A stretch of DNA of 57,037 nucleotides from Candidatus Aminicenantes bacterium (GCA_016931595.1 JAFGEN010000159.1:1-57037), one strand, 5' to 3'. Counted from the first letter of the stretch, positions 311 to 42,789 are shown. The notes: generated by a model not told the origin, from the sequence alone. Made by a program: numbers and translations.

Positions 311-3300
311 ATGAATCCACCCTTCGAATGCACCCTGGCCGTTCCTTCCACGCGGCCGAGGGCGTTGATCGTCGACGGCCGCCCGGGCCGTCTGGCCGCC
401 TTCCTGTCGACGATGAACGGCTGCGCCGAGGTGTTCCCCGCCAGAAGCGCCATGGAAGCCTTCTATTGGGCCGAAAAACTCGGCTCTCTCGACTGTCTCA
501 TCCTTCATGATCCCGCGGCCTTGACCGCCGCCCCTCTCGATTTCATCCGGATGCTTCTTGCGGCTCTGAAAAAAACCGACCGGATGATCAAACTCATCGT
601 TGCCGGGCCCGAGGAAGCCGAGGCCTTGAAAAATTCGATCTTAGTCGGGGCCGAGGACATCATCCTCCAAGGCCCGGTCGAGATCGAGGACTTCGTCCTC
701 GAAGTCCGGCGGCTGATCGCCCGCCTTGCCCGGGAAAAACGGTCTCTCCTCCGCGTTCCCATGTCCGAAGAGAGGCCGGTTCGGGTCGAGATCGGCGGAG
801 CCGACGGCCCCGCCGTTCTTCGCGACCTCAGCGAAACCGGAATGTTCCTTCAGACGGCCGCGCGGCTTGAAATCGGAACGGCACGACCTTTTCTTCTCCG
901 CATTTCCGACGACGAGGTTTGCCGGGTGGAAGGGATCGTTGTTCGCTCGGAAAAGGGCGAGGGCGGAATCGGGATCGCCTTCCGGCCGACGGACGACGAG
1001 GCCCGAAAAAGAATCTTCGCCCGGCTGGCCGAAGCCGTGTCCCCCAAGGACCTGGCCGAGCTCAAGCGGCGCTATCCCAAGTTGAACACCTCGGAAATGG
1101 TGGCGTTCCCCTCCTTCGAGAAAATCCTGGAGCTTCTCGAGGAAGCCCGGCGGGTAAAAACCGAAATCACCGCTCTCCCGGCCCATGCCCGGAAACCGGC
1201 AACCCTGACCCTCGAGCGGATCGACCCCGGGCGGACCTGCCTTCTCACCGGAAAGGACCTCGGGGTCCGGTTTAAAACCGGCGACTCGGTGTTCATGTCT
1301 TTTCAGTTCGGTTACGCCACTTATAACTTTGAAACCACGGTCCGAAGGATCGATGACGACGGAACCCGCCTCGAGTGCTTCTTCCCCCGGATCCTGTTCT
1401 ATTCGGAAAAGCGGTCCCTGAAACGGGAGGCCCCGCTATCCGGGCTTCGCCTGGAACTTGTCCTTCCGCCTCCGTTTCAGGCCGAGATCACCGGACCGAT
1501 CGTCGACGTTTCGGACACCGGGGCCAGTTTCCTGGCCGACGGCGGATCGCTCGCTCTCCTCCCCGGCACCCCGGTCGGCCCGATTCGGATCTATGACAAC
1601 GGACGGCTCGTCCGCGAGGAAAAGGGCGAAGTCCGGAACGTCGTCCGCGTCGGCGACAATGGTTGTTCCGGTTATCGCTACGGCCTCCAATTCGGGATCG
1701 GCCGTTTGAGCCTCCAGACCATCCATCCTCACCGGCGGAGCACCGATGCCCCGGCCGCCGCGGATGAAGCCGCCGCGCTTTCCGACCCCGGTCTACCGGC
1801 CGCCCTGAAGGCCCTCTCCCACCGGCCGCCGACGGTTGTCCGGCTGGAAAACGGACGGGGCGAAGAAATCGTCGGCCTCCTGAATTCCTCCGCTCCCCTG
1901 GACGAAGAACCCGTCCCCGTCGTCCTGATTCCTCCGGCTTTCGGCAAAACGAAGGAAACACTGTTCGGCCTGGCCTTGACCCTTGTCGAGAATTTTCATC
2001 GGGCCGGCCGGCCGCTGGCCGTTTTCCGTTACGACGGCATCCGCCGCAAGGGAGAAAGCCACAAGGACCCGGAGGCCTCTGAGCCGCCGCTGGAAATGGC
2101 CAACGCCAGCCTCAGCCAGGGAGCCGACGACATCCGGGCCGTCCTCGACTGGCTGGCCGCCAACCCGACGCTCAAGGCCGGGCCGGTCATTCTCGTGACC
2201 TTCTCGCTCTCCGCCCTGGAGGCCCGGATCGCCCTTCGGGACGAGGCCCTCCGCCGCCGCGTCCAGTACTGGATCGCCTGCATGGGAACGCTCGAGTTCC
2301 GGGACCTGATGAACAAGGTCAACTGCGGACTCGACCTTCTCGAGCAGCACCAGTTGGGGATCGACCTCGGAATCATCCCCATCCTGGGCAATCTCGTCCG
2401 GATGCGGCATTACGCCGCCGATGTCGTGGCCTCCGGCGTGGCCACCCTCGACCAGGCCCGGGAGGACATGCGCAGGATCAACCTCCCCATCACCTGGATT
2501 TACGGCAAGCACGACAACTGGGTCAAGGCGGAGTTCGTCCGGGACGTCATGAGCATCAAGGCCGACGCCCCCAGGGAGGTTCTTTCCGTCCCCTTGGGCC
2601 ACAATGCCCGGACTTCGGAAGAAGCCCTCCGCCTGTTCGGGACGATTACGTCCCTCGCCCATCGCTTCCTTCACGGGACGATGATCGAAACCGTCATCCC
2701 GGACAGTCAAAACCTCGAGTACATGCGACGGGCGGAGAAAGACCGCCTCCCCGCCCGCAATCTCAAGAATAAGAAATCCTACTGGACCCAATACCTTGTC
2801 GGGAAGAACGACCTTCTCGGATTCGATACGATGGCCCTGTCGGACGACTACCGCGGACTCATGGAGGATCAACGGACGGCCCTCGAGTTGATGCCGAAAG
2901 ACCGCTTCCTCGACCTCGGCGGCGGCACGGGCAACTTCGTCGAACACCTCATCCGGGCCGGGGACAAGTTCCCGGCCCGGGCCGTCCTGGCCGACCTAAT
3001 TCCCGAAGCCCTGGAGCGGGCCTGCCGCAAGCTGACCGCCCGGGCCCCGTTCCTCAAAGAGGAGGGCCGCCTCAAAGCCATCGTCCTCGACGCCGAGATG
3101 AACCGGTTCATCCCGGTCCGCCGGTTCCTGGCGGGTGAAATCGGCCGCTTCGAGGAGCTGGCCGATCAGGTCGAAAACCTGTCCCTGCCTTCGGCCGTTC
3201 GTATCGACGGAGCTTACTCGCCGGACCTGCACCGGATTCTCCGGGGCCGGGACGTCACCGCGGAAAAGGAACGCCGTCTGAAAGGCGAATTCGAGCTGGC

Positions 3301-3859
3301 CGAGTACCGGATGATCCGCGATTTCAACCTGGCCGCCCGCCACGTTTTACGGCTGGCCCCCGGCCGCCCGGTCTTCCGTAAACTATCGTTCCCCGGCGGC
3401 CTCGAGGCCCCCGAGCATCTTCCTTTCGCCGACGGAAGCTTCTCCAAGGTTCTGATGAGCCTGGTCCTCTCCTATCTTTTCAATCCGGTCGAAACGCTCC
3501 GGGAGGTTCACCGGATCATTGCCCCGGGCGGCCGCCTGGTCGTCTCGAGCATGCGCCCGGACACCGATGCCTCCGGCCTGTTCACCCGTCTCCTGGACAA
3601 GGTCGAATCCATGCCGGAAAGCGCCTTCCCCGCCCCCTGGCCGAAGGCCCGGCTTCTCGATTCGATGCGCTCCTTTCTCAACGACGCCCAAGCCCTGGTC
3701 GACCTGGAGGAAGCCGGAACGTTCGATTTCTTCGACCCGGACAAATTGGCCGCCCTTCTGGAAACCTCGGGATTCGAGAGCGTCCGGACCATCCCCTCCT
3801 TCGGAAATCCTCCGCAAGGATATATTATCGTCGCCAAACCGAGGGACGTCCATGGCTGA
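311..3859 (+). CDS. Multidomain signalling enzyme: receiver-like domain + two PilZ domains + alpha/beta-hydrolase + class I SAM methyltransferase
   Basis: 1182-aa ORF. Receiver-like N-terminus (RALIVDG...DCLILHD). PilZ motifs RSLLR...DLSETG and RSLKR...DVSDTG. Hydrolase triad candidates FSLSA / KHDNW / LGHNA. Methyltransferase motif I LDLGGGTGNF and PGGRLVVSS. Stop overlaps the next start (ATGGCTGA). Confidence 0.8.
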   Translation: MNPPFECTLAVPSTRPRALIVDGRPGRLAAFLSTMNGCAEVFPARSAMEAFYWAEKLGSLDCLILHDPAALTAAPLDFIRMLLAALKKTDRMIKLIVAGPEEAEALKNSILVGAEDIILQGPVEIEDFVLEVRRLIARLAREKRSLLRVPMSEERPVRVEIGGADGPAVLRDLSETGMFLQTAARLEIGTARPFLLRISDDEVCRVEGIVVRSEKGEGGIGIAFRPTDDEARKRIFARLAEAVSPKDLAELKRRYPKLNTSEMVAFPSFEKILELLEEARRVKTEITALPAHARKPATLTLERIDPGRTCLLTGKDLGVRFKTGDSVFMSFQFGYATYNFETTVRRIDDDGTRLECFFPRILFYSEKRSLKREAPLSGLRLELVLPPPFQAEITGPIVDVSDTGASFLADGGSLALLPGTPVGPIRIYDNGRLVREEKGEVRNVVRVGDNGCSGYRYGLQFGIGRLSLQTIHPHRRSTDAPAAADEAAALSDPGLPAALKALSHRPPTVVRLENGRGEEIVGLLNSSAPLDEEPVPVVLIPPAFGKTKETLFGLALTLVENFHRAGRPLAVFRYDGIRRKGESHKDPEASEPPLEMANASLSQGADDIRAVLDWLAANPTLKAGPVILVTFSLSALEARIALRDEALRRRVQYWIACMGTLEFRDLMNKVNCGLDLLEQHQLGIDLGIIPILGNLVRMRHYAADVVASGVATLDQAREDMRRINLPITWIYGKHDNWVKAEFVRDVMSIKADAPREVLSVPLGHNARTSEEALRLFGTITSLAHRFLHGTMIETVIPDSQNLEYMRRAEKDRLPARNLKNKKSYWTQYLVGKNDLLGFDTMALSDDYRGLMEDQRTALELMPKDRFLDLGGGTGNFVEHLIRAGDKFPARAVLADLIPEALERACRKLTARAPFLKEEGRLKAIVLDAEMNRFIPVRRFLAGEIGRFEELADQVENLSLPSAVRIDGAYSPDLHRILRGRDVTAEKERRLKGEFELAEYRMIRDFNLAARHVLRLAPGRPVFRKLSFPGGLEAPEHLPFADGSFSKVLMSLVLSYLFNPVETLREVHRIIAPGGRLVVSSMRPDTDASGLFTRLLDKVESMPESAFPAPWPKARLLDSMRSFLNDAQALVDLEEAGTFDFFDPDKLAALLETSGFESVRTIPSFGNPPQGYIIVAKPRDVHG

Positions 3860-6374
3860 CCGGGACCAGAGCCTGTTCGAACGGCTGGGACAGGAATACG
3901 ACCTGCACGGGCGGACCATCCGGGTCATCGTTTTCAGCGCCATCCTTTACACCTCGTTCCTTCTCCTCGATTGGATCTTCGCCCGGGAAAACTTCGTCGA
4001 GTTCCTTATCATCCGCCTGGTCGTGCTGGCCGTCCACGCCGCCCTGTTCGCCTACCTCAGCCGGATCAAAACCAACCAGGGCGCCGAGAACGTCGCCGTC
4101 ATCCTGACGATCGTCGACGTGGCCGGAATCGCCCTGATGATCCAGATCCTGGGCGGATACGAAACGGCCTATGTCCAGGGCCTCTACCTGATCATCATGG
4201 GGATCGTCGTCATCGTCCCCTTGCGCTTCCGTACGACAATCGCCCTTTACGCCCTGATCTGGGCCAGCTACGCCGTTCCCGGGTTCTTCCGCTCCCCGGC
4301 CGACGGCAAGGCCGCGTTCGCCAACCTCTTTTTCCTCTCGGCCTTGATCATCCTGGGAATCCTCGGCTCATCCATCATGGAAAGCATCCGCAAGCGGGAA
4401 CTGGCCGGACGGATGAAGCTGGAGAAAGCCACCGCCCAGCTCCAGGAATCCAATGAAAAGTTGAAAACCATCGACCACGCGAAAATGCAGTTTTTCGCCA
4501 ACGTCAATCACGAGCTGCGCACGCCCCTCACTCTCATGCTCGCCCCGATTCCGCCGATGATCCAGGAGCGGATGGGTCCGGTCACCGACCTCCAGAGAGA
4601 GACTCTCGAATCCATCCGGCAAAACGGCTACCGCCTCCTCAAGCTCATCAACAACCTCCTCGACCTCAACAAGCTCGAGGCCGGCCGGCTGCGGCTTCGG
4701 CCGAAAACGCTGAATTTCGATGAATATGTCGAAAGCATCCTCTCCTCGGTCAAGGTCCTGGCCGACCAGAAGGGGATCAGCCTGTTTTTTCAGCACCCGC
4801 TGGCCCCGGTCGAGCTGACGATCGACCCCGACCAGTTCGAAAAAGTCGTCCTCAACCTTCTTTCCAACGCCTTGAAATTCACTCCGGAAAACGGGCGGGT
4901 GACCCTTTACCTCGAGGAAAAGCCTGAAAGCGTCCTCTTGACAGTGGAGGATACGGGGGCGGGCGTCCCGGCCAACATGCTGGATGCCGTTTTCGACCGG
5001 TTCCGGCAGGTGGAAGGCCCGGCCGGCAGAGCCCAGCCGGGTACCGGCATCGGGCTGGCCTTGGCCAAGGAAATCGTCTCTCTCCACGGAGGGATCATCC
5101 GGGTCGAAAGCGAACTCGACGAGGGCTCCCGGTTTATCGTCGAACTTCTGAAGGGGACGGGCCATTTCAGCGAGGAAATTATGGACCGCCGCCAGATCGA
5201 TCAGCCGGTCGCATACCGGAAGCGCGAGACCGACGGCCACCGGGAAGGCATCCAAGTCCAGGATATTCTCTCCAATACCCGGGACATCCAGCTGGCCGAC
5301 CTGGAAAAAATGGACTTCGACCCCGTCGAGGCGGCCAAGGAGCGGAACCACGACTTCCAGGTCCTGGTGATCGACGACAGCCCGGAGGTGTTGAAGCTCA
5401 TGCACCTCCTCCTCCACGAAGACTTCGACCTGGACTTCGCCCTGTCCGGCGAGGACGGAATCCGGATTCTCCACGACCGCGGACCCGACCTGGTCCTTAG
5501 CGACGTCATGATGCCGGGAATGGACGGCCACGAGCTTTGCCGGCGGATCAAGTCCGACCCGGCCATCAAGCATATCCCCGTTCTCTTGGTGACCGCCCGC
5601 TCGGCTTCCGAGATGCTGGCCGCCGGCATGGAATCCGGGGCCGACGATTACATCATCAAGCCGTTCAATGCCGTCGAGCTCAAGGCCCGGATCCGGTCCC
5701 ATCTCCGAATGCGCCAAGTCGAGGCCGAGCTGGCCCTGGCCAACCGCAACCTCAAGATGAGGACCGACGACCTCGTCGAACGCCAGCGGACGCTGTTCAT
5801 CTCGATGGTCAAATCGCTGGTTTCGGCCCTCGAGGCCAAGGATTTCTACACCCGGCACCATTCGGCCCGGGTCACCGACTTCTCGCTCCGAATCGCCCGT
5901 CGCATGGGCTTCGGCGAGCGGGAGCTGGCCGACCTGGAACTGGCCGGCCTGCTTCACGACATCGGAAAAATCGGCGTCCCCGAAAACATCCTCAACAAGC
6001 CCGGCCCGCTGACGGCCGCCGAGTACAAGGCGATCATGGACCACCCCGTCTTCGGCGAAAGCATCCTCAAACCGGTCGTCGAGCTGAACCAGATCGCCAA
6101 GATCGTCCGCTGTCACCATGAGAAATACGACGGCACCGGATATCCCGACGGGCTGAAAGGCCTGGAAATTCCCCTCGGAGCCCGGATCATGACCGTCGCC
6201 GATGCCTACGACGCCATCACATCCAAGCGGCCTTACCGCGGCGAGGAATCCCACCATTATGCGGTCAAGGAAATCATCCGCTGCTCCGGAACCCAGTTCG
6301 ACCCCGAGGTCATCCAGCATTTCATGGAGGTGGCCCGGGAGTTCGCGGTCAACAACGGCATCATTCGGGCCTGA
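3852..6374 (+). CDS. Hybrid sensor histidine kinase / receiver with C-terminal HD-GYP domain (c-di-GMP phosphodiesterase type)
   Basis: ATG 3852 overlaps the upstream TGA (3857-3859); the track ORF start at 3519 is an out-of-gene extension. Multi-helix hydrophobic N-terminus. H-box FFANVNHELRTPL. N/G boxes LLSNALKFT, EDTGAGV, GTGIGLALAKE. Receiver VLVIDDSPEV...LVLSDVMMPGMDG...DYIIKPF. HD-GYP motifs LLHDIGKIGVP and HHEKYDGTGYP. Confidence 0.9.
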   Translation: MADRDQSLFERLGQEYDLHGRTIRVIVFSAILYTSFLLLDWIFARENFVEFLIIRLVVLAVHAALFAYLSRIKTNQGAENVAVILTIVDVAGIALMIQILGGYETAYVQGLYLIIMGIVVIVPLRFRTTIALYALIWASYAVPGFFRSPADGKAAFANLFFLSALIILGILGSSIMESIRKRELAGRMKLEKATAQLQESNEKLKTIDHAKMQFFANVNHELRTPLTLMLAPIPPMIQERMGPVTDLQRETLESIRQNGYRLLKLINNLLDLNKLEAGRLRLRPKTLNFDEYVESILSSVKVLADQKGISLFFQHPLAPVELTIDPDQFEKVVLNLLSNALKFTPENGRVTLYLEEKPESVLLTVEDTGAGVPANMLDAVFDRFRQVEGPAGRAQPGTGIGLALAKEIVSLHGGIIRVESELDEGSRFIVELLKGTGHFSEEIMDRRQIDQPVAYRKRETDGHREGIQVQDILSNTRDIQLADLEKMDFDPVEAAKERNHDFQVLVIDDSPEVLKLMHLLLHEDFDLDFALSGEDGIRILHDRGPDLVLSDVMMPGMDGHELCRRIKSDPAIKHIPVLLVTARSASEMLAAGMESGADDYIIKPFNAVELKARIRSHLRMRQVEAELALANRNLKMRTDDLVERQRTLFISMVKSLVSALEAKDFYTRHHSARVTDFSLRIARRMGFGERELADLELAGLLHDIGKIGVPENILNKPGPLTAAEYKAIMDHPVFGESILKPVVELNQIAKIVRCHHEKYDGTGYPDGLKGLEIPLGARIMTVADAYDAITSKRPYRGEESHHYAVKEIIRCSGTQFDPEVIQHFMEVAREFAVNNGIIRA

Positions 6375-6389: not shown

Positions 6390-7265
6390 ATGAAAACCGC
6401 ACAATCCGCCGTGGCGGCCGGGATTATCTGGTTGATCGTCGCCTGGACGCCGGCTTGCCGGGAAGGACGGACCCAGGATAAGCCGGAAAGCGGGCTGGTC
6501 CCGCACATCGCCGAAAAACCGCTCCCCGAAAACAAAACAATCGAATCGCGATTTCCCGCCCCGCCGGGCTTCGAACGGATTCCGGCCGAGCCGGGATCCT
6601 TCGCCGCCTATCTCCGGGGTCTTCCGCTTAAGCCGCAAGGCGCGGAGGTCAGGCTGTTCGACGGAAGGGTCAAGTCCGCCGCGGGCGTCTATGCCGCGGT
6701 GGTCGACCTGCCGATCGGCAACCGGGACCTCCACCAATGCGCCGACGCCGTCATCCGCCTTCGGGCCGAATACCTGTTCGCGGCGGGGCGCCCGGACGAC
6801 ATCCGCTTCCATTTCACCAACGGCTTCGAGGCCGCTTACTCCCGCTGGAGACGGGGGGAGCGGATTTCGGCGGGCCGCGACGGCGTCCGATGGACGGGCG
6901 CGGTGCGGACGGAACCGGATGACGGAACATTCCGGGGTTACCTGGAAACGGTCTTCGCTTACGCCGGGACGGCTTCTCTGGCCGCCGAGCTTGACGACGC
7001 GGCGGGAGACGACCCCGAGATCGGGGATGTCTTCATCCGGGGCGGACACCCCGGCCACGCCGTCATCGTCGTTGATAAGGCCTCAGACTCGCAAACCGGC
7101 CGGAGCGTTTTCCTCCTGGCTCAAAGCTACATGCCGGCCCAGGATATCCAGGTGCTGGTCAATCCGAACGAGGCCCGATTGAGCCCGTGGTACGCAGCGG
7201 GATTCGGGGACGTCCTGCAAACACCGCAGTGGACGTTCACCTCGGCCGAGAAAAAACGCTTTTGA
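6390..7265 (+). CDS. Putative exported/lipoprotein of unknown function (possibly DUF4846-like; tentative)
   Basis: Starts 15 nt after the kinase stop. N-terminal hydrophobic segment ending in Cys (IIWLIVAWTPAC). No catalytic motif recognised. The family guess is from memory only. Confidence 0.55.
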   Translation: MKTAQSAVAAGIIWLIVAWTPACREGRTQDKPESGLVPHIAEKPLPENKTIESRFPAPPGFERIPAEPGSFAAYLRGLPLKPQGAEVRLFDGRVKSAAGVYAAVVDLPIGNRDLHQCADAVIRLRAEYLFAAGRPDDIRFHFTNGFEAAYSRWRRGERISAGRDGVRWTGAVRTEPDDGTFRGYLETVFAYAGTASLAAELDDAAGDDPEIGDVFIRGGHPGHAVIVVDKASDSQTGRSVFLLAQSYMPAQDIQVLVNPNEARLSPWYAAGFGDVLQTPQWTFTSAEKKRF

Positions 7266-15063: not shown

Positions 15064-16226
15064 TTTTTCACGATGGAGAGCAAGGCGACCTTTTTCGTCC
15101 CCCAATGATAACCGATGGGGAAGGGCAGGGACTTGGCCCTTCCCGGCTCCTCGAACGCCGCCTGCAGGTCCGGCTGGTCGAGGTTTTTGAAGTCGGCCAC
15201 CGGCGGGGCATAGGTTCCATACAAGCGAACATCCCATTTCTCCGGCTTGAAATGCCGGAAGGGAATTCCCGTATCGTCCTGGAGGATGTACCGGCTTCGG
15301 GCCAGGACAAGCTCCCGGATTCGGGAAAATTCCCGGTAATGCATTAAATACGATGCGGACTTGACGAACGTTGTCTCGAAGGGCAGACCCTGGAGATACA
15401 GGTCGAGCGGCGTTCCCTCTCCAAAGGCCTTGTTTTCCAAATCGCAGGAAATGTAGGACATGTCCCGCGGAACGCTCGTCCCTTCGGCGAAGAACGCAAT
15501 GCGGACGCCGAACGGCCGGCGCCGTTTCCGCTGTTCGCCCGGATAGGGGCTTTCGACCGCCGCCCCCTTTTCCGAAATCTCCAGACGCCGGACCGACGAG
15601 ATCGTGTAACCGCTCCTCTTCAGAAAAAAACACAGGATCGGAAGAACACCGTCGACCTTGTCGTCGGCCAGCTCGGCGTTCATGTTTTTCGTGATGAAGT
15701 AGCTCTTTTTGAAGAAATCTTCGAGCGCGTCCTGAACGCTGAGGATGTAACGGGCGGCTTTCTCCGCCTCGGACGCCTGGAATTCGGGCATCCGCCCGAC
15801 AAACTCCAGGCCGAGGAGAAGGTAATGAGCCGCTCCGGGATAAAGAACGAGCGGCGTCAACCCGTCGGGCCCGCCGAAGGGATAAAAGAGCGTCGCCGCG
15901 GCCGCCCGGGACTCGGCGATTTCCCGCTCGGCCCAGGTCCGGATCGGCCCCAGCCGGGCGGATTCCATCGCCGCCCATTGTTCTTCCAGGGCGGCGGCGT
16001 ACGCCCGGTACTCATCCGTTTCCTGGAACTCCATGTAGGGCGCCGTCCGGCAAGGCCGGCCCGCTAAAAACGAGGCGATCTCGTCGTAAACCGGGTCGAC
16101 GGGAAGGCCTCGGACCGGGCTCTCCGCTTGCGGCCGCACATCGGCTTGGCCGGATAATCCGGCCGCACACACGGCCGCCCAGGCAGCCGCCGCGAACACA
16201 ATCAAACGGGTTCGTCTCTGCTTCAT
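15060..16226 (-). CDS. Secreted protein of unknown function
   Basis: ATG 16226 gives MKQRRTRLIVFAAAAWAAVCAAGLSGQA (signal-peptide-like). A TTG at 16259 is an alternative start. Contains FYPFGGPDG but no family recognised. Translationally coupled to the permease. Confidence 0.6.
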   Translation of the reverse strand: MKQRRTRLIVFAAAAWAAVCAAGLSGQADVRPQAESPVRGLPVDPVYDEIASFLAGRPCRTAPYMEFQETDEYRAYAAALEEQWAAMESARLGPIRTWAEREIAESRAAAATLFYPFGGPDGLTPLVLYPGAAHYLLLGLEFVGRMPEFQASEAEKAARYILSVQDALEDFFKKSYFITKNMNAELADDKVDGVLPILCFFLKRSGYTISSVRRLEISEKGAAVESPYPGEQRKRRRPFGVRIAFFAEGTSVPRDMSYISCDLENKAFGEGTPLDLYLQGLPFETTFVKSASYLMHYREFSRIRELVLARSRYILQDDTGIPFRHFKPEKWDVRLYGTYAPPVADFKNLDQPDLQAAFEEPGRAKSLPFPIGYHWGTKKVALLSIVKK

Positions 16227-16354
16227 CGATGATCCAGGGCCGGAAAAATCGGTTTTCAACCCTTGCCCGAAATCCGGGTGAACGCGTCATCATAAGATAC
16301 TCGAGGAGAAAAAGCGAATTCCAAACGGGAGGTCGGGATGTTCGGCGGGAACGC

Positions 16355-18034
16355 TCAGCCCGCCGCCGGCTTCGGCTTCTTGATGATCACAAGCGTCCGG
16401 TCGTCCTCGGGATCTCCTCCCCCCGAAAACTCCCTGAGGGCGGTGAAGATGTCGGCCAGGATGTCCTCGGCGCATTTCCCGGCCGAGCCCCGGACGGATT
16501 TGATCACGCCTTCCACCCCGAATTCCTCTCCGGCCGCATTCCGGCTTTCGGTGATTCCGTCGGTATAGAGGATGAGAACATCGCCGGAACCCAGGGTGAC
16601 CCGGCCTTCCCCGTATTCGAGCCCGGCCAGCATGCCCAGGGCCATCCCCGTTCCTTCGAGCGGCCGGGTGACGCCGGAGGCGGCCAGGTGCAGCGGGGGA
16701 TTATGGCCGGCGTTGACGTAGCGAAAACCGCCGTCGGCGGGATTGAGCTCCCCATAAAAAAAGGTGATGAACACGTTCGGGGCCGAGCTTCGGAAAATGA
16801 ATTCGCTCAGCTTATGGGCCAGTTCTCCCGGGGCCACCCCCGGCCGGGCCTCCGACTGAAGGGCGGCTCGAAGCGAGGCCATGAGGAGCGAGGCGCTGAC
16901 GCCCTTGCCGGCGACATCGGCGATCGTCAGTCCGAGGCGGCCGTCGGCCAGGGAGATGAAATCAAAGTAGTCCCCGCCCACGTGCAGCGACGGAATCGAC
17001 TCGGCTGAAATCTCGAAATCCCTGCAGACCGGAAAGTCCTTGGGCAGCAGGCCCCGCTGGATTTCGGCGGCCAGGCGGAGCTCCCGCTCCAGGCGCTCGC
17101 GGGCCTGGACATCCTCGACCATTCGGGCGTTTTCAATTTTAACGGCGGCCAAGTTGGCCAGAAGCGTCAGGAGCCGGAGATCTTCCTCGGTGAACGGCTC
17201 CCGGCTCGAAACCCGCTCGGCGCAGACGACTCCCAGCGTCTCCTTCTCGGTCTCCAGGGGAACGCACATCGCCGAATGAAGGCCCATGTCGATGATGCTC
17301 TGGCGGTCGGCAAAGCGCGGGTCCTCGGCCGCGTCGGATGTCAAGACGGACAGTTTCCGGGAAGCGGCCATTTCGACCAGCCCCCGGCTGATCTGCATCC
17401 GGCTCTTCTGCAAGTGGGGATTACTGACCCTGACGGCCCGGGGGACAAGCGTATCGGGGTCGTCGTCCTCCATGAGGAACAGGGCCCCGCGGTCCATCGG
17501 AAGGTGAGAGGAGATCAGGTTCATGATATATTCGAGCAGCTCCTGGAGGGGCTTGTGAATCAGGAGAGCCCGACTGACCTCGTTCATGACGACAAGAAGC
17601 CGGTCGTCCCCGGGAGGCCTTTTTTCCGGCCCCAGAGGCCGCAGCCCGGCGTCCGTGCTCCGGCTGACGATATCGCGCGACGGGAGAGCCGTGCTGACCC
17701 TGACTGAAAGTCTCGGAGAATCAGTGATCTCGACGGCCTCCGTCCAGGGCCGGTCGAAGCAAATGCGGACCGCGCCGATTGAAATTTCGTCCCCCGGGAC
17801 GAGAAGAACGGGTTCGACCACCCGGAGCCCGTTGATCATGGTGCCGTTCTTACTCCCGGCGTCCTCCACGGTCCAACCCCGGGACGTTCTCTTGATCCGG
17901 GCGTGGCGGCTGGAGATGTAGGCGTCGGGCAATCGGACATCGGCATCGACGGCCCGGCCGAGGACGATTTCGTCCTTCTCCAGAACAACGGAAAACGACG
18001 GCGCTTGTTTTGGATACACATAAAGCGTCGACAT
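16355..18034 (-). CDS. FHA-GAF-PP2C (SpoIIE/RsbU-type) serine phosphatase
   Basis: ATG 18034 with GAGGTGA upstream. FHA stretch GRAVDADVRLPDAYISSRHARI...GSKNGTMING. Central GAF-like region. PP2C motifs HVGGDYFDF and LYTDGITE. Confidence 0.85.
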   Translation of the reverse strand: MSTLYVYPKQAPSFSVVLEKDEIVLGRAVDADVRLPDAYISSRHARIKRTSRGWTVEDAGSKNGTMINGLRVVEPVLLVPGDEISIGAVRICFDRPWTEAVEITDSPRLSVRVSTALPSRDIVSRSTDAGLRPLGPEKRPPGDDRLLVVMNEVSRALLIHKPLQELLEYIMNLISSHLPMDRGALFLMEDDDPDTLVPRAVRVSNPHLQKSRMQISRGLVEMAASRKLSVLTSDAAEDPRFADRQSIIDMGLHSAMCVPLETEKETLGVVCAERVSSREPFTEEDLRLLTLLANLAAVKIENARMVEDVQARERLERELRLAAEIQRGLLPKDFPVCRDFEISAESIPSLHVGGDYFDFISLADGRLGLTIADVAGKGVSASLLMASLRAALQSEARPGVAPGELAHKLSEFIFRSSAPNVFITFFYGELNPADGGFRYVNAGHNPPLHLAASGVTRPLEGTGMALGMLAGLEYGEGRVTLGSGDVLILYTDGITESRNAAGEEFGVEGVIKSVRGSAGKCAEDILADIFTALREFSGGGDPEDDRTLVIIKKPKPAAG

Positions 18035-18044
18035 CGATCTCACC

Positions 18045-20471
18045 TCATTTCATCGATTTCAGGATCCGCCGGGCGGCCCGGGCTTTCTCGACCTGAGGCG
18101 CGTCTTCCAGCAGGGGGAGGATGATCTCCTTGACAGCCATCGGAAGGACATTTTCCAAAAGCTCCAGGGCGTAGTCCACGGCCCGCTTCGTTCCCTCGGT
18201 ATAGTTCTGCAGGGCTTGGCTGATGTCCGCATGGGGATAAATCAAGCCGAGAAGGAGGAACAACGGCCGGAAATTGCGACTCGGAGCCGCCCGGTTTTCG
18301 GCGTCCCGGCAGGCGCCCTCGACCCAGCAGCGGACTTCCGGCATGATGTCGCGCTCCCGAAACTTGATGCGTTCGTTGCGGGTCCGGAGCTTGAACAGCG
18401 CCTCGATCACCGCTTCGTGAACCTCGGAATCGCGCCGGCGGAGCTGCCGGACCAGGGCCTCGGCCGCCCGGGGCGTTCCGATCTCGGCCAGGACGAAGGG
18501 CAGGGCCTGCCGGACGGCCCGGTCGGCCCGAAAATCGGCCAGCCAGACACGAAGGACAGTTACGGCCTTGTCGCTGTAAGCGGCCAGAGCCTCGCCCGCC
18601 CGGTCGCTGACCGAGGGACGACCCAGGTGGGGTACGATCAGGGGAAGGTATTCGCGTTTTTTCAACCGCCCGGCGCTTTCCAGGGCGTATTGAACCACAC
18701 CCGGCGACTCGTGCCTCAGCAGGAGGGTCAGATTTTCGGTCAGGGGGGCGTCGGCCGGCATCATGCCCAGGGCTTTGGCCACTTCCATCTGGTCGACCTC
18801 CCGGGCGGGGGCCGCGTCGCCGGCGATCGCGTCGAAGGACGGCCGCATGATATTCTGGTAGGCGTCCAAGGCCAGGACTTCCCGGACGGTCACATCGATC
18901 GGCTCCTTGTCGGAAGGCTCCGACCAGTCGGGGCCGAGGGCCTCGGAATCGGCATCGAGCAGCGTATCGAGGGCCGAAGCCCGGACCTCGGCCGACTTGT
19001 CCGACAGGACCTGGCGGAGCTCGGGGGTCAGCTTTTCAGCCCTCAGGAGGTCGAACAGGTTGTAAGCGTAAAGAACGGAGCTCCGCTCCCGGCTTTCCAG
19101 GAGGTCCAGCAACTGCTTGGCCGTCTCCGGCCGGGCCTGCTCCCGGACGAGGCGCTCGGCGTCAGGGCGCGAGGGGACGAGATTTTCCCGGATTGCCGGC
19201 AGGTAGCGCCGCCCGATCCGGGCGAGGATTAAAAACCACACGACGACGATGGCAATCGTCACCAGGCTCATCCGGGCGGCGGGAAAGGCCAGCACGATTC
19301 CAAAGACAACCTGGAGGAGGCTGGCCAGGGCCTCGCCGGTCTTGCTGACAAACATGTCGATCGTCATTTTGGCCTTGGCCTTGATGTCCTGGGGAACCGG
19401 AATGTAGAGTAGCTCCCGGGTGGCTTGGCTGAAGGTGTGGGTCAGGCTCTTGTCCGCGCCTTTCATGAAGATCGCCCAGGAGGCAAACCCGGCCGCCGGC
19501 AGGAGGAAGAACGCCGCCGATCCGGCCGCCAGGAAAATCGGCATCACGAACAAGGCCGCCCGGACGCCCAAAGCCTGGATCGCCCGGTTTGCCAGGAGTG
19601 AATTCAGGAGCCATGAAACGACCAGGACACCGACGGAAAAAACAGCCAGAAAGGATGTCCGCCGGGCCTCTTCATTTTCGAAGGCGGCTTTGACCGCCAG
19701 ATTGAATTGAAAATCGATCATCGTCGAGGCAGCCAGGGCGACGACGATTAGGGCGGCCAGGAGACGAAGATAAGGTTTCCCGGCAACGGTCCGGAAACCG
19801 TCACGGAAATCCGGCGGCCGGCCTGATGCGGCGGCCGGAGCGGAGGGGGCCTGCCGGACCGCAGCCCGGACAAAGACCGTTCCGGCCAGGTAGAACACCA
19901 GGCCGAGGAGGATGAGGTTTCGCGCCGGCATCAGGCGGGAAAGGAACACGACGATGACGGAACCGCAGATGCCTCCCAGAAGGCCCCCGCTGACAAAAAA
20001 ACTGACCAGGTGCTTGGCCCGCCGCGGCGGACAGACGGACCCGACAACGACCCAAAACTGCGTGACGGAAGCCAGGACAAAGATTTCCAGCCAGAACCAG
20101 TAAAGGGCCGGAACAATCGACCGGCCCGGACCGAGGTCGCGGGTCAGCCAGAACAGGAAGAAAAAGGCGGAGGTTCCAAGGGCGAAAAGCCACCGGGTCA
20201 GGGACAGGTAGGCCCGGCGGTCGAGAGAGCGGATTTTTTTCGTGTTCCAGGCCGCAAAGACACCGGTCAGAACCGCCGAGACGAAATAGACGAGCGGCAG
20301 GGAGCCCTTGGTCAGCCCCAAGCCGAGGAACAGCGAGGTCTTCGAAACCTTGGAGACGTAGATCGAGGCCATCAGGAAGAAAAAGTGGGCGAAGAGATAC
20401 CCGACAACCCGCTCCTCCCCGGCCTGAACAGGGGCAAATCGCCGGAGAAAGAATCCGAAGCGGCCTTTCAT
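18045..20471 (-). CDS. TLC/NTT-like (ATP:ADP antiporter family, MFS fold) transporter fused to a C-terminal HEAT-like repeat domain
   Basis: ATG 20471 (MKGRFGFFLRRF...); a TTG at 20489 is also possible. N-terminal ~430 aa polytopic, starting EERVVGYLFAHFFFLMASIYVSK. C-terminal ~350 aa of helical repeats (SAEVRASALDTLL, ESPGVVQYALESAGRL, DRAGEALAAY, VRQALPFVLAEIG). The family call is by resemblance only. Confidence 0.55.
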   Translation of the reverse strand: MKGRFGFFLRRFAPVQAGEERVVGYLFAHFFFLMASIYVSKVSKTSLFLGLGLTKGSLPLVYFVSAVLTGVFAAWNTKKIRSLDRRAYLSLTRWLFALGTSAFFFLFWLTRDLGPGRSIVPALYWFWLEIFVLASVTQFWVVVGSVCPPRRAKHLVSFFVSGGLLGGICGSVIVVFLSRLMPARNLILLGLVFYLAGTVFVRAAVRQAPSAPAAASGRPPDFRDGFRTVAGKPYLRLLAALIVVALAASTMIDFQFNLAVKAAFENEEARRTSFLAVFSVGVLVVSWLLNSLLANRAIQALGVRAALFVMPIFLAAGSAAFFLLPAAGFASWAIFMKGADKSLTHTFSQATRELLYIPVPQDIKAKAKMTIDMFVSKTGEALASLLQVVFGIVLAFPAARMSLVTIAIVVVWFLILARIGRRYLPAIRENLVPSRPDAERLVREQARPETAKQLLDLLESRERSSVLYAYNLFDLLRAEKLTPELRQVLSDKSAEVRASALDTLLDADSEALGPDWSEPSDKEPIDVTVREVLALDAYQNIMRPSFDAIAGDAAPAREVDQMEVAKALGMMPADAPLTENLTLLLRHESPGVVQYALESAGRLKKREYLPLIVPHLGRPSVSDRAGEALAAYSDKAVTVLRVWLADFRADRAVRQALPFVLAEIGTPRAAEALVRQLRRRDSEVHEAVIEALFKLRTRNERIKFRERDIMPEVRCWVEGACRDAENRAAPSRNFRPLFLLLGLIYPHADISQALQNYTEGTKRAVDYALELLENVLPMAVKEIILPLLEDAPQVEKARAARRILKSMK

Positions 20472-20496
20472 CGGCTGGGCCTTCCCCAAGCCCGGC

Positions 20497-38565: not shown

Positions 38566-40125
38566 ATGAAAAAATCGCCGCTGACATCCGTTCTCGGGGC
38601 CTTTGTCCTCCTGGCCCTGGCCGCTGCATTGACCTTCGCGATTCAAGCCGGAGGACAAACGCGCCCGCCCGAATACAACGAAATCGTCGCCGCCCAGAAA
38701 ATCGCCGACCCGGCTGCAAGGTTGAAGGAATTCGAGCGGCTGAAAGCCGCCTACCCCCAAAGCGCCATGATGGGCACGATCGACGGCAATATCTACGGAA
38801 TCAAGCTCGAGATGGCCGAAACCCTGGAAACCGTCCTCCAATTGCAGAGGGGCGACCTCGGCAAGGGGGAAGGATTCATGAAGTGGATGTCCTACTTCGG
38901 CGCGGCGACGGATCTCGTCGACCACGACAAGTTGGAAAAGTTCGACAAGGCCGGCGTCTTGAAAGCCGTCCAGGCGTATAAGGCCGAGGGTGACAAGCTC
39001 CTGTCCGACCCGAGCCTCATCCAATCCCTTCCCGAAGCCCAGCGTCCGTACGCGCTCGATTATGCCAAGCGGTTCCACGTCACCCTAGCCATGGCCCAGT
39101 TGAACGCCGGCCAAGCGGCCGCGGCCGCCTCCTCGCTGGAGGCCTATAAAGCAGCCGGCGGCGCTTCCGACAGCGCCTATCATTTCGCCCTGGCCGAAGC
39201 CTCTGCCCGGCTGAATAAGAAAGCCGAGGCCCTCGAGGGCTATCTGAACGCGGCCGTCGAAAACCACGCTGACGCCACGGACAAGGCCAAGGCGGCCTGG
39301 ATCGCGCTCAAGGGTTCCGAAGAGGGCTTTGCCGCCGCCCTCGAAGCCAAGCAGAAAGAACTGCCGTACCATCCGGCCGCATTCCAAGCCCCGGCCGAAT
39401 GGAAGGGAAAGACCGTCCTGGCCGAGATCTTCACCGGCTCGGAGTGTCCTCCCTGCGTCGGCGCCGACTTGGGCTTCGACGGACTGATCGAATCCGTGCC
39501 GTCGAAGTATCTGGCTATTCTCGAATACCACCTTCCGATTCCCCGGCCCGACCCCATCATGAACCCGGCCACGGGCGCCCGCCAGGCTTTTTACGGCGTC
39601 AGAAGCACGCCTTCGACGTTTTTCGACGGGGAGGCAAAGTACGGCGGCGGCGGCGGACGGGGCAACGCGGAAAATAAGTACAAGCAATACCTGGGCGAGA
39701 TCATGTCCCGGCTCGGCCAAGCGCCGGTCTTGACCCTCAAAGCCGAGGCCGTTCTCTCCGGCGACAAGGTCGAGGTCAAGGCGATCGTCGACAAACCCGC
39801 GCCGGGGGCCGAAATCCACATCGCCCTCGTCCAGGGTGAAGTCCCCTACAAAGGCAGCAACGGGATTCTCTTCCACAAGATGGTCGTCAGGGACATCCGT
39901 ACGGTCGCGCCTGAATCGCCCAAGGCCGTTTTCGACCTGAGCGCTTCGGAACAGGCCACGGACGCGTATCTGACGGAATTCGAAAAGACCTATACCCGGG
40001 TCCCGAACTTCAAATGGGCCGAGCGGCATTTTAAAATCAGCCGGAACGGGCTGAAAGTCGTCGTCTTCGCCCAGGATTCTCAAACCAAGAAGGTTCTGAA
40101 CGCCGTCACGGTCGGGGTGAGATAG
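38566..40125 (+). CDS. Secreted protein with helical (TPR-like) N-half and thioredoxin-like C-half carrying a CPPC motif
   Basis: AAGGAGA RBS. Signal peptide MKKSPLTSVLGAFVLLALAAALTFA. FTGSECPPCVGADLGF redox-type CxxC. Confidence 0.6.
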   Translation: MKKSPLTSVLGAFVLLALAAALTFAIQAGGQTRPPEYNEIVAAQKIADPAARLKEFERLKAAYPQSAMMGTIDGNIYGIKLEMAETLETVLQLQRGDLGKGEGFMKWMSYFGAATDLVDHDKLEKFDKAGVLKAVQAYKAEGDKLLSDPSLIQSLPEAQRPYALDYAKRFHVTLAMAQLNAGQAAAAASSLEAYKAAGGASDSAYHFALAEASARLNKKAEALEGYLNAAVENHADATDKAKAAWIALKGSEEGFAAALEAKQKELPYHPAAFQAPAEWKGKTVLAEIFTGSECPPCVGADLGFDGLIESVPSKYLAILEYHLPIPRPDPIMNPATGARQAFYGVRSTPSTFFDGEAKYGGGGGRGNAENKYKQYLGEIMSRLGQAPVLTLKAEAVLSGDKVEVKAIVDKPAPGAEIHIALVQGEVPYKGSNGILFHKMVVRDIRTVAPESPKAVFDLSASEQATDAYLTEFEKTYTRVPNFKWAERHFKISRNGLKVVVFAQDSQTKKVLNAVTVGVR

Positions 40126-40203: not shown

Positions 40204-42789
40204 ATGCCGGTCGAATATCAGCCCGAGACCATACGCAATTTGGAGGCGGTGTTCTCCGCCCAGGGCGTGGTCCGTCCGTTCCGCCGCGGCCGCTACGAGG
40301 CCGGAACGGTCTTGGATTACGAGGTCCGCGGAATCCTGCCGGACGGCCGGGCCCGTATCTCCCTGGAAATCCTCAAGTTTGTCGGCGGCGGTTTCGCCGG
40401 CCAGGTTTACAAGGTCACCCCGCGCTCGATCGAAGCGATCGAGGGCCGGGTGGAAGGCCTGGAGGCCGGCCGCGTCTTCGCCCTCAAAATTCTGATTCCC
40501 CCGTCCGGATTCAGTGTTCGGATTCGGAACCTCTTCTACGGCCTCGGTTTTCAAGCGCCGTTTTCCCTCCAATCCCTGGCCGCCGCCGGCCGCTCCCAGG
40601 CCCTCTGGCAGAAATTCATCCGCCGGGCCGCCCGGGTCGAATTCAGCCGGGATGACGCCGTCGCCGACGTCATCGGGACCCTCCGCGACACGCGCCTGGG
40701 AAGCTACGGCGAGCTGATCGAATGGGTCGACGGGAGGATGTGGCGGTTCGAGGTCGACGACGACCTCGACGCCCGCCGGAGCTGGAAACCGGGAGAGCCC
40801 GGGGACGCACTGGGCTCGCCCGAGTATCGGACCAAGCGCGAGTTCATGAAGCGTCTGGTCGCGATGATGCGGCGGATGGGAGCGACGGAGTTGGCCCGCC
40901 AGTACGAATGGTGGTCGCTCAAAAGCCAGCCCAACGCGATGAAGCGAACAGCCTCCGACCCCGACCCGCGGGCCGGCTTGACGGCGGTCGATTTCCGGGC
41001 CGGGATGGCCTTGATGCCCTTCAATCCCCAGTGCCCGGTCGACTTCAAGCTGATTCTCCAAGGGATCGGCCGAGGCCGTTTCGTCCAATTCGACAAGGGC
41101 GATTTCCGAAAGCTTGAAGACTATCTCGACGATCACAAGGCCGCCTTCGCCGATCTTCGGCCGGCTTTCGAAGAGCTGAAGAGGGAAGACGCGGCTTATC
41201 GCGACTCCCTAATCGACTGGACATATCACCATGTCCGGCTCTTCAGCCTTCGGCTCCGCCGCCGGATCATGGCCGGGTTCCGCGAGGGCTGGCGGGTCCG
41301 GAACGTGACCGACGACCGGGCCGATGCCGTCCTGAAGAAAAGCGGGCTCCTCTCCTTCCTCTTTCTGACGGCCCCCTGGCTCGCCTTGGCCACCCCGGCC
41401 TTGCTGATCTTCGCCTGGCCGGGGCGTGTGTGGTGGAAGTATCCGCTCTGGCTGCTCCCTCTCCTCCTGGCGCCGTTCGTCCGGAGAATTTGGGGCCGGG
41501 GTGACCTACGCCGCCATTACGGCCGGATGATCGGAAGCCCCCGCTATTTCCTCAAGGCGGGACGAGCCCGAATCGCCGAAGCGATGGTCCGCTGGGTCCG
41601 GGCCGGTCGGGCTTCGGAGGAACGGGCTCTTAAAATCGCCGGCGCGCCCTGGCGGTACTACGTTCAGCTTCCGCTCTCGATCCTGCCGCCGGGCCTTCAC
41701 CGCTTTCTCACCGAAAAGACCTATTTTAAAGAGCGGATCAGGGCGATGTTCGTCCAGCCGGTACGGCTTCTCGTCCATGCGGCCGAACGCGAAAAGTGGA
41801 TGATTGAAATGATCGACCAGGGCCGGGAAAACGGCCTCCTGACCGAGCCCGAAGCCGAACGGATCAAGGGGCAGGTGAAAGAACCGTTCATCCAAAAATA
41901 CCTGAAAAGCCTGGCCGTCCACATGGCCACCCTGTTCGTCTCGGAGACGGTCTTTCTCATCACAGCCGTCGTCTATGTTCTGGCCCATCCGGACCTATCC
42001 TGGTCGGCGGCGACGCTTCGGGCCGGGATCATCATCGCCGCCCTGAACCTGCTTCCGATTTCTCCCGGGTCGCTTGTCCGGGGCTTTTACGTCATCGGCC
42101 TGATGATCAAGGAGCGGAACTTCAAGGATTATAATATCGCCTTCGGGGTCAGCTTTCTCAAGGTCCTCGGCTACCTGGCCTTCCCCATCCAGATGGCGTA
42201 TCGATATCCAGACCTGGCCCGGTTCATGGCCGGCCATTGGGCCAACGAAGCCGTCCACCGGGTTCCGATTTTCGGAGAAAAGGGGGCCTGGCTGGAACAT
42301 TTCGTTTTCGACTCATTCTATAATTTCCCCCTGACCCTGCGCCGTCGGATACGGATCCGGGCCGAAAAACGGGCCGGGGAGAAAAAGCGCGGGGGGACGA
42401 CTCTTGTTATTGTTCTAGCCGCAGCCGCTCTTATCGGGGCTCTCGTTTACGGCTTCGCCGCCGTCTCGGGCGGCCCGCCGGCGTTCCGCCGGATGTGGGG
42501 CCTGGGCATCTGGGTTCCGTTTTTCGCCGGAGCGATGATCGCTCGGACGGCTTCGGGCTTGCGAATGGGGCAGCGGGTCGTTCGGGGCATGATCGGCGGA
42601 GCCGTCATCGGCCTGTTTGCAGGAATTGCGCCTTATGTTCAAGCCCTCACTCCATTTTTTGGGACGGCCATAGTCGAAGCGGGCGCGCCGTTCGGCCTGG
42701 CCCTGGCTAAGTCTGGAGTCGGGATGTTCCTCTTGTTTGGAGTCCTTGGTCTGGCCGGAGCCGTGATCGCCGAGACGCGCAAGCCTTGA
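40204..42789 (+). CDS. Atypical protein-kinase-like (ABC1/UbiB- or RIO-like) domain fused to a large polytopic membrane domain
   Basis: Gly-rich loop VGGGFAGQVYKV, Lys motif VFALKIL, hinge-like ELIEWVDG, loop WWSLKSQPNAMKR, DFG-like AVDFRAG. These are followed by more than 8 hydrophobic helices. Confidence 0.5.
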   Translation: MPVEYQPETIRNLEAVFSAQGVVRPFRRGRYEAGTVLDYEVRGILPDGRARISLEILKFVGGGFAGQVYKVTPRSIEAIEGRVEGLEAGRVFALKILIPPSGFSVRIRNLFYGLGFQAPFSLQSLAAAGRSQALWQKFIRRAARVEFSRDDAVADVIGTLRDTRLGSYGELIEWVDGRMWRFEVDDDLDARRSWKPGEPGDALGSPEYRTKREFMKRLVAMMRRMGATELARQYEWWSLKSQPNAMKRTASDPDPRAGLTAVDFRAGMALMPFNPQCPVDFKLILQGIGRGRFVQFDKGDFRKLEDYLDDHKAAFADLRPAFEELKREDAAYRDSLIDWTYHHVRLFSLRLRRRIMAGFREGWRVRNVTDDRADAVLKKSGLLSFLFLTAPWLALATPALLIFAWPGRVWWKYPLWLLPLLLAPFVRRIWGRGDLRRHYGRMIGSPRYFLKAGRARIAEAMVRWVRAGRASEERALKIAGAPWRYYVQLPLSILPPGLHRFLTEKTYFKERIRAMFVQPVRLLVHAAEREKWMIEMIDQGRENGLLTEPEAERIKGQVKEPFIQKYLKSLAVHMATLFVSETVFLITAVVYVLAHPDLSWSAATLRAGIIIAALNLLPISPGSLVRGFYVIGLMIKERNFKDYNIAFGVSFLKVLGYLAFPIQMAYRYPDLARFMAGHWANEAVHRVPIFGEKGAWLEHFVFDSFYNFPLTLRRRIRIRAEKRAGEKKRGGTTLVIVLAAAALIGALVYGFAAVSGGPPAFRRMWGLGIWVPFFAGAMIARTASGLRMGQRVVRGMIGGAVIGLFAGIAPYVQALTPFFGTAIVEAGAPFGLALAKSGVGMFLLFGVLGLAGAVIAETRKP

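Follow-up and report, generated by a model that had tools for sequence, protein, structure and literature searches.

Background

PilZ domains are known mainly to act on motors, polysaccharide synthases, transcription factors, and partner proteins. YcgR, PlzD (VCA0042), PP4397, and MrkH are two-domain PilZN-PilZ receptors for cyclic di-GMP (c-di-GMP) that serve as stand-alone adaptors for the flagellar motor or DNA. In the Rpf/DSF (diffusible signal factor) system of Xanthomonas, RpfF is a signal synthase that acts on acyl carrier protein (ACP) thioesters, and RpfC is a multi-transmembrane hybrid kinase. The logic of RpfG-type REC-HD-GYP proteins has been described (bioRxiv 10.1101/2021.11.05.467447). 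In Ralstonia, the phcBSRQ genes encode the methyltransferase PhcB, which makes methyl 3-hydroxymyristate, and the sensor kinase PhcS, which detects it (PMC8578825). The PilZ protein MapZ binds the methyltransferase CheR in trans (bioRxiv 10.1101/814665). LuxD of Vibrio harveyi (PDB 1THT; PF02273) is a single-domain myristoyl-ACP thioesterase/acyltransferase that is encoded in the lux operon and feeds a fatty-acid reductase. Here, we compare these systems with a locus on a 57,037-bp stretch of DNA from Candidatus Aminicenantes bacterium (GCA_016931595.1, JAFGEN010000159.1:1-57037; hereafter the window), in which a gene for an 1182-amino-acid (aa) enzyme is followed by a gene for a membrane hybrid kinase. 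The window is a complete contig of an Aminicenantes/Acidobacteriota-type metagenome-assembled genome (MAG), and the analysis draws on sequences, structure predictions, and the gene order of MAGs.

We class the 1182-aa protein as a putative PilZ effector whose enzymatic output is new and whose kinase partner is conserved. Its domains are, in order, a degenerate receiver, a PilZ domain, a YcgR-like PilZN plus PilZ module, an alpha/beta hydrolase, and a class I methyltransferase dependent on S-adenosylmethionine (SAM). We tentatively interpret it as a c-di-GMP-controlled two-step acyl-processing enzyme, a reading in which our confidence falls a little short of even.

By analogy, the system in the window appears to work most like phcBSRQ of Ralstonia, a likeness in working and not in membership. 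Compared on operon logic alone, in both a gene for a methyltransferase-type enzyme precedes one for a membrane sensor kinase, and REC-containing kinases or REC proteins come next; this order is found in the Myxococcota-type relatives of the locus (enzyme, kinase, REC-GAF-kinase) and in locus L078, which ends with a lone REC gene. A thioesterase and a methyltransferase acting together would also, as in Phc, yield a fatty-acid methyl ester. However, no PilZ or c-di-GMP input and no HD-GYP output is known in Phc. The latter is a point of likeness with the Rpf/DSF system, where an acyl-thioester-cleaving enzyme likewise stands beside a multi-transmembrane hybrid kinase, with a phosphorelay ending in a REC-HD-GYP c-di-GMP phosphodiesterase. 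In contrast to the window enzyme, RpfF has a crotonase fold and no methyltransferase; in the window, the REC-HD-GYP part belongs to the kinase chain, and the c-di-GMP sensors are in the enzyme itself. The pair formed by MapZ and CheR1 shares the coupling of a PilZ domain to a SAM-dependent methyltransferase, but MapZ acts in trans, whereas the window enzyme is one chain.

Hydrolase domain

The open reading frame (ORF) at 311-3859 (+) encodes 1182 aa and has a GC content at third codon positions (GC3) of 0.79, compared with 0.62 for the whole window. A chance high-GC ORF was rejected as an explanation, since 47 full-length homologues at 48% to 84% identity, with source labels of Candidatus Aminicenantes or Acidobacteriota MAGs, identify it as a real gene. 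Every motif quoted in a preliminary description of this sequence lies at its place in the translation, and Pfam supports the PilZ, hydrolase, and methyltransferase calls made there. The coordinates of all domains are given in Table 1.

The predicted catalytic triad of the hydrolase consists of Ser632 (TFSLSA; nt 2204-2206), Asp735 (KHDNW; nt 2513-2515), and His764 (LGHNA; nt 2600-2602). Together with the G870/G872/G874 SAM motif of the methyltransferase, these residues are present and invariant in four alignments (the Aminicenantes set, 36 relatives at 27% to 50% identity, 53 hydrolase domains, and a 52-sequence mixed set). The domain matches the Pfam family Acyl_transf_2 (LuxD, PF02273) at 28.2 bits, above the gathering score of 20.3, and 7 of the 36 diverse relatives match it as well. 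When all of PDB was searched by sequence, LuxD (1THT) was the single significant match (E = 7e-4 with the single sequence); with a family profile its E value was 5e-7, and the next match was at 0.008. The HMMER alignments place S632, D735, and H764 on S114, D211, and H241 of LuxD, which we take to be its catalytic triad, and the SLSA nucleophile motif and a FRYD motif are also shared. In a Foldseek search with an AlphaFold2 (AF2) model of residues 505-1182, LuxD ranks first (E = 7.5e-14, TM-score 0.82), followed by cinnamoyl/feruloyl esterases, the thioesterase DcsB, and lipases. An earlier full-length AF2 model had predicted local distance difference test (pLDDT) values below 50 at residues 660-677 and 711-766, which cover the hydrolase lid and catalytic loops, and was not relied on for the hydrolase.

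On these matches, the hydrolase belongs, distantly, to the LuxD family. It is no LuxD orthologue, since it reaches just 27 bits with the NCBIfam LuxD equivalog (cut-off 420), and unlike LuxD it is fused to a methyltransferase and PilZ domains and has no lux genes around it. The putative role, by analogy with LuxD, is that of an acyl-ACP or acyl-coenzyme A (CoA) thioesterase or acyltransferase, with an acyl thioester as the candidate substrate. Support for the activity itself comes from genomic context, in the form of ACP and acyl-AMP ligase neighbours in relatives. The preliminary description had proposed a hydrolase that might remove methyl esters; its closest solved relative is LuxD by both profile and fold, and it does not resemble a methylesterase.

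Methyltransferase domain and catalytic unit

The methyltransferase contains LDLGGGTGNF at residues 867-876 (motif I, LDLGGGTG, 867-874), PGGRLVVSS at 1072-1080, and Asp895 and Asp927. The GxGxG of motif I is invariant across the family, and D895, the acidic residue that follows beta-2, is conserved. Five Pfam families (Methyltransf_11, 23, 25, 31, and 12) match above their cut-offs, in a split match with E values down to 6e-12, and the Foldseek matches are to Coq5, MitM, and PsoF, enzymes for quinones and natural products. From these profiles the domain is best described as a generic class I enzyme. The preliminary description had called a class I methyltransferase with an insertion of about 120 aa after motif I; the enzyme class and the insertion hold, but the insertion measures 100 aa and begins some 60 residues past motif I, between LDAE (Asp927) and LPF (1037-1039). 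It forms helices at 934-1012 in the models and is missing from the Myxococcota-type relatives of about 820 aa.

The model of residues 505-1182, built from a deeper alignment, has a pLDDT of 91.1 (about 90 in the methyltransferase) and a predicted template modelling score (pTM) of 0.87, and on these values the hydrolase and methyltransferase are predicted to form one rigid unit. In the model, the hydrolase packs confidently against the methyltransferase as a single catalytic unit.

The same pairing of a class I methyltransferase with an alpha/beta hydrolase occurs in BioC and BioH, to which the preliminary description had likened the logic of this protein. If the enzyme worked in this way, the methyltransferase would esterify the free carboxylate of a carrier-bound dicarboxylic chain for extension or tailoring, the hydrolase would later demethylate it, and c-di-GMP would control the flux. 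The ACP and acyl-AMP ligase neighbours found in some classes (see below) would fit such a masking role, as would weak matches to BioC at 22.7 and 25.6 bits. However, the 22.7 bits obtained with the BioC profile (TIGR02072) are far under its cut-off of 185 and do not exceed what UbiE, ArsM, or CpaM score, BioH has no match at E <= 1, no conserved biotin or fatty-acid synthase genes lie nearby, and the strict link to a kinase and an exporter would be left unexplained. The BioC/BioH pair was rejected as a family assignment, and we regard carboxylate masking by this enzyme as very unlikely.

Sensor half

The N-terminal half of the protein contains two stretches that match Pfam PilZ (E = 8e-18; 65 bits versus a cut-off of 22.5), in agreement with the two PilZ domains of the preliminary description. 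The first domain has EKRSLLR at 142-148 (RxxxR, R144/R148) and DLSETG at 172-177 (DxSxxG, D172-G177), and the second has EKRSLKR at 366-372 (R368/R372) and DVSDTG at 399-404 (D399-G404). RxxxR and [D/N]xSxxG are intact in both domains of all 38 aligned homologues. In the wide family (relatives at 27% to 50% identity), R368, R372, and G404 are conserved in at least 90%, and 20 Myxococcota-type proteins of the 820-aa class show no variation in the binding motifs. This conservation suggests that the PilZ domains bind c-di-GMP, and binding might either activate or inhibit the enzyme.

Within the whole chain, it is residues 262-465 that match PDB folds best, and the matches, to PP4397, MrkH, YcgR, and VCA0042/PlzD, cover both domains of these receptors. 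The Foldseek probability is 1.00 to 3kyf, 5y6f, 5kgo, and 2rde over 204 to 224 columns, with target TM-scores of 0.36 to 0.54 in a region of moderate model confidence. RxxxR of this module sits in the inter-domain linker and DxSxxG in the PilZ barrel. The Pfam PilZN/YcgR N-terminal profile has no match in the enzyme at E <= 1, so that the YcgR-like N-domain read earlier from the sequence is borne out by the two-domain fold but not by its profile. We place the sensor half in the PilZ family, with a YcgR-like fold. Unlike the stand-alone YcgR-type adaptors, the module is fused to a two-enzyme unit of 680 aa and, in this clade, is preceded by an extra PilZ domain and a receiver-like domain.

The receiver-like N-terminus noted in the preliminary description has the (beta-alpha)5 fold of a receiver in the model (residues 16-140) but lacks its key residues. 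His66 occupies the position of the phospho-acceptor Asp, the acidic pair reads VDG and is missing its second Asp, and Ala and Gly replace the Thr/Ser and Lys. The receiver profile PF00072 has no match in the enzyme and is found in many homologues. The domain is a pseudo-receiver in this clade. A working receiver is probably ancestral, since the phospho-acceptor Asp is kept in homologues P0023, P0024, and P0042-47 (P0023 and P0024 also have the acidic pair). No signal peptide or transmembrane segment was seen in the sequence of the 1182-aa enzyme, which is predicted to be cytoplasmic.

Table 1 Features of the enzyme gene and the downstream kinase gene in the window
Feature	Residues	Nucleotides	Strand	Basis
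Whole enzyme gene: REC-like / PilZ / PilZN-PilZ / LuxD-like hydrolase / class I methyltransferase		311..3859	+	ORF, Pfam, homologues, AF2 models
Degenerate REC-like domain	16-140	356..730	+	(beta-alpha)5 model pattern, alignment of N-termini
PilZ domain 1	142-243	734..1039	+	Pfam PilZ (best stretch 148-237), conserved motifs
YcgR-like module (PilZN-like beta-barrel 262-358, PilZ 2 362-465)	262-465	1094..1705	+	Foldseek, motifs
Disordered linker	about 466-504			Models, alignments
LuxD-like alpha/beta hydrolase	505-792	1823..2686	+	Pfam, PDB sequence match, Foldseek
Class I SAM-dependent methyltransferase	797-1182	2699..3856	+	Pfam, motifs, Foldseek
Methyltransferase N-terminal helical extension	797-858			Models, alignments
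Methyltransferase core (interrupted by insertion)	860-1182			Models, alignments
Methyltransferase helical insertion, 100 aa	933-1032	3107..3406	+	Alignment gap analysis, models, split Pfam matches
Hybrid kinase, 840 aa: N-terminal transmembrane sensor, HisKA-HATPase, REC, HD-GYP		3852..6374	+	Sequence, Pfam

Partner kinase

The ATG of the kinase gene (3852) overlaps the stop codon of the enzyme gene (3857-3859) by 8 nt, which suggests that the two genes are translationally coupled. The kinase has an N-terminal sensor with six hydrophobic segments (transmembrane count by eye) and matches to HisKA, HATPase_c, Response_reg, and HD_5 (E = 8e-40), with the HD-GYP motifs HDIGK (residue 702) and GYP (residue 763). 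Its match to MASE8 is weak (E = 0.07) and the sensor is left unassigned in the window; confident MASE8 matches occur in some relatives. Directly after the kinase lies a gene for a DUF4846 protein (6390-7265, +; E = 5e-91), which does not hold this position in three Aminicenantes homologue loci.

The pairing of enzyme and kinase is conserved. It is present in all three Aminicenantes loci examined, where the genes upstream are not conserved, and in loci L078, L079, L080, L086, and L087. We called and clustered ORFs in 74 loci and searched them with the first 230 residues of the kinase (the transmembrane sensor). This sensor was encoded downstream on the same strand in 57 of the 58 loci with enough sequence, directly after the enzyme in 30 and after a gap of about 2.3 kb in 27; some family members lack an adjacent kinase. 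Kinases of the Myxococcota class have a second kinase module at their end in place of HD-GYP, and a REC-GAF-kinase often follows them; the window kinase shares 32% identity with one of these Myxococcota kinases over the transmembrane, kinase, and REC regions. Phosphotransfer to the enzyme cannot explain the universal link to the kinase, since proteins of the 820-aa class have no receiver. The kinase may instead sense what the enzyme makes, the enzyme may modify the kinase, or the two may simply be co-regulated.

Additional signaling genes accompany the pair in individual lineages. In one Aminicenantes relative (L001), a HisKA_7TM-PAS-GAF-GGDEF diguanylate cyclase is encoded after the enzyme-kinase pair (16166-18235), so that a predicted maker, breaker, and receptor of c-di-GMP stand side by side. 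In one Myxococcota subclade (cluster 15; L042 14532-15041 and relatives), a gene two positions downstream of the kinase encodes a SixA-like histidine phosphatase (His_Phos_1), and genes for ParB/Noc-like, DsbA-like, and sulfotransferase proteins also follow the kinase.

Acyl and lipid genes near the enzyme

Of 51 loci, 36 have a transporter of the HAE3/MMPL type, in the resistance-nodulation-division (RND) superfamily, adjacent to the enzyme gene; it lies between the enzyme and kinase genes in 25 and divergently upstream in 11. At least 25 of the 27 loci with a 2.3-kb gap before the kinase contain such a transporter in that gap. Other classes have genes for acyl activation and carriage beside the enzyme. 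L087 has an AMP-ligase, an ACP, and a MASE8-HK-REC-HD-GYP protein; L082 has an acyl-CoA/AMP-ligase-type gene, an ACP, and a B12 radical-SAM gene; L083 has a B12 radical-SAM gene; and L084 and L085 have a small ORF, a radical-SAM gene, and an AMP-binding ligase, for which the best NCBIfam match is fatty acyl-AMP ligase (E = 6e-133; 444 bits, under the 600-bit cut-off). Radical-SAM and AMP-ligase genes are also found upstream of the enzyme in L077 and L073, and the P0056 locus encodes an acyl-CoA dehydrogenase, a type III polyketide synthase, a beta-ketoacyl-ACP synthase III (KAS III), and a GDSL lipase. This genomic context points to acyl-carrier or lipid chemistry coupled to a membrane kinase, rather than to a CheR/CheB-style cycle.

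The preliminary description had likened the logic to CheR/CheB as well as to BioC/BioH and suggested c-di-GMP-gated reversible methylation. In such a switch, the methyltransferase would methyl-esterify a carboxyl group of a small molecule or a protein, perhaps the kinase itself, the hydrolase would remove the ester, and c-di-GMP would set the balance, as in chemotaxis systems where CheR and CheB provide methyl-adding and ester-cleaving activities in one pathway. Signaling proteins with opposing activities are common. The conservation of both catalytic centers in one chain and the near-obligate pairing (57 of 58 loci) with one sensor kinase through overlapping genes are consistent with a switch, and there is a precedent for PilZ control of a methyltransferase in MapZ and CheR (bioRxiv 10.1101/814665). 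However, CheR (PF01739) and the CheB methylesterase (PF01339) are absent from the Pfam matches at E <= 1, which led us to reject this pair as a family assignment, and no LCMT or BioH profile matches either. CheB itself does not have an alpha/beta-hydrolase fold. The hydrolase is nearest to an acyl-ACP thioesterase in both sequence and fold, a lipid-type exporter lies between the enzyme and kinase genes in 25 to 27 loci, the acyl-AMP ligases and ACPs in operons of other classes have no role in protein methylation, and some members lack the adjacent kinase. A cycle of adding and removing methyl groups is therefore less supported than acyl processing, and we consider it rather improbable, although it is the leading alternative.

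Proposed mechanism and its alternatives

In the acyl-processing mechanism that we propose, c-di-GMP would bind to the YcgR-like PilZN-PilZ module, and here also to the extra PilZ domain, and thereby change the activity of the rigid catalytic unit. An acyl group, fatty or of a similar kind, would pass from a carrier-protein or CoA thioester to Ser632 of the LuxD-type hydrolase, which would hold it as an acyl-enzyme intermediate and then release or transfer it. With SAM as donor, the class I methyltransferase would methylate either the acid so released, in the simplest case to a methyl ester, or an acceptor. The product is suggested to be hydrophobic by the presence of an exporter and an intramembrane sensor, and it would act at or in the membrane; the HAE3/MMPL exporter is in the same operon in many relatives. 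The enzyme would work with the co-translated multi-transmembrane hybrid kinase, and since the kinase output in this organism is an HD-GYP phosphodiesterase, the pair could form a loop around c-di-GMP. In this scheme we infer the binding of c-di-GMP and the direction of its effect, the acyl-thioester substrate, the target of methylation, the order of the reactions, and the sensing of the product by the kinase.

Several observations weigh against this mechanism. The hydrolase is just 18% to 20% identical to LuxD, and cinnamoyl/feruloyl esterases and lipases come close behind LuxD in the structural ranking (TM-scores of 0.74 to 0.80), so that the substrate may be an oxygen ester. The invariant charged residues of the hydrolase (K548, E549, R573, D575, E582, D607, and R639) could equally serve a polar or protein substrate. 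The methyltransferase matches only generic small-molecule methyltransferase profiles, far below any NCBIfam family cut-off, and these profiles point to no particular methyl acceptor. Relatives of the MMPL exporter, acyl-AMP ligase, and ACP were not found in the 57-kb window. Further, it would be wasteful to load a fatty acid on ACP merely to hydrolyze it, and transfer or on-carrier tailoring may therefore be the real chemistry.

The first two of these points raise the alternative that the substrate is an ester other than a lipid, such as a hydroxycinnamoyl ester or a different aromatic or polar one, with the released acid or alcohol being methylated and c-di-GMP and the kinase serving only for regulation. 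Chlorogenic-acid esterases are among the close structural matches as well, and the structurally nearest methyltransferases work on quinones and natural products. However, LuxD is the sole relative detectable by sequence, by a wide margin, the neighboring genes encode fatty-acyl-AMP ligases, ACPs, and an exporter for compounds of a hydrophobic or amphiphilic nature, and the protein is cytoplasmic as predicted above. We find a non-lipid substrate highly doubtful.

The comparison with Phc and DSF also allows acyl processing to be placed in a larger scheme, in which enzyme and kinase would be a self-contained circuit for cell-cell or membrane signaling. A fatty-acid-derived methylated signal would be made under c-di-GMP gating, exported by the HAE3/MMPL transporter, and sensed by the MASE8-like domain. 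Such a circuit is unlikely, though worth considering. Its feedback would be closed in Aminicenantes, where the kinase would degrade c-di-GMP through its HD-GYP domain, and the circuit would so far be confined to uncultured Acidobacteriota and Myxococcota; we hold these two points as loosely as the circuit itself.

Family and distribution

The preliminary description could match the combination of domains to no described protein, and our literature search likewise found no paper describing this PilZ-hydrolase-methyltransferase architecture; family proteins are named in databases merely as "PilZ domain-containing" or "methyltransferase domain-containing". The combination is nonetheless no one-off. 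A scan of 1.84 billion representative proteins with residues 500-1182 as query recovered the hydrolase-methyltransferase unit in at least 338 clusters (50% identity) at E <= 1e-30, and one length class alone comprises 439 clusters at 90% identity. Proteins of about 735 aa are without PilZ, those of about 820 aa consist of the YcgR-like module, hydrolase, and methyltransferase without the insertion, those of about 1040 to 1100 aa have one extra PilZ, and those of about 1150 to 1200 aa have further N-terminal domains. A profile search with the alignment of 36 diverse relatives returned the Aminicenantes set again plus one new sequence, and tblastn against PLSDB plasmids gave generic methyltransferase fragments only.

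Pfam PilZ matches were obtained in 26 of 36 diverse family members. Both of the PilZ-less proteins that were looked up (L078 and L079) have a separate PilZ gene of 282 to 285 aa directly upstream, and this splitting supports a functional link between PilZ and the enzyme. Judged by these sequences, the hydrolase-methyltransferase unit almost always carries a fused PilZ; in two loci, a separate PilZ gene precedes it instead. The L078 operon of split PilZ, enzyme, kinase, and REC genes is followed by several transposase and integrase genes (L078 10498-13921), and the module may therefore move between genomes.

All organism labels recovered for the family belong to MAGs (Aminicenantes/Acidobacteriota and Myxococcota, including Bradymonadales). 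Among 74 loci from GTDB species representatives, all of them MAGs, 53 are labelled Myxococcota or Deltaproteobacteria and 3 Acidobacteriota or Thermoanaerobaculia. Another 12 are labelled "uncultured Spirochaet*" (L010, L011, L023, L024, L035, L042, L045, L046, L052, L066, L069, and L070). However, L042 and L045, and L035 in part, share their gene order with loci labelled Myxococcota or Myxococcales (for example, L042 with L040 and L047), suggesting that the "Spirochaet*" labels are probably wrong. Further family members are labelled Bradymonadales and Nannocystis.

Other features of the window

Elsewhere in the window, a multi-domain FHA-GAF-SpoIIE signaling protein (PP2C-type phosphatase) is encoded at 16355-18043 (-). 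An 813-aa protein at 18045-20489 (-) has an unusual combination of a partial TLC ATP/ADP-transporter match and HEAT repeats. Two adjacent ORFs of 519 and 861 aa at 38566-40125 and 40204-42789 (+), with a GC3 of 0.78, have no Pfam match at E <= 1e-5. A PADLOC scan gave generic motif matches only, and thus nothing suggests a defense system. Across the whole window (1-57037), scans detected neither a tRNA nor an Rfam family at gathering score, and tandem repeats of note were absent.

Implications

If the proposed function is true, lipid or acyl-carrier chemistry joins the direct targets of c-di-GMP, and the production of diffusible signals could be added as well. We know of no ligand for the MASE8-like sensor domain, and the enzyme gives a candidate source of one for this membrane sensor. 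The family is abundant in little-studied environmental phyla, and the predictions made here are testable with recombinant protein.

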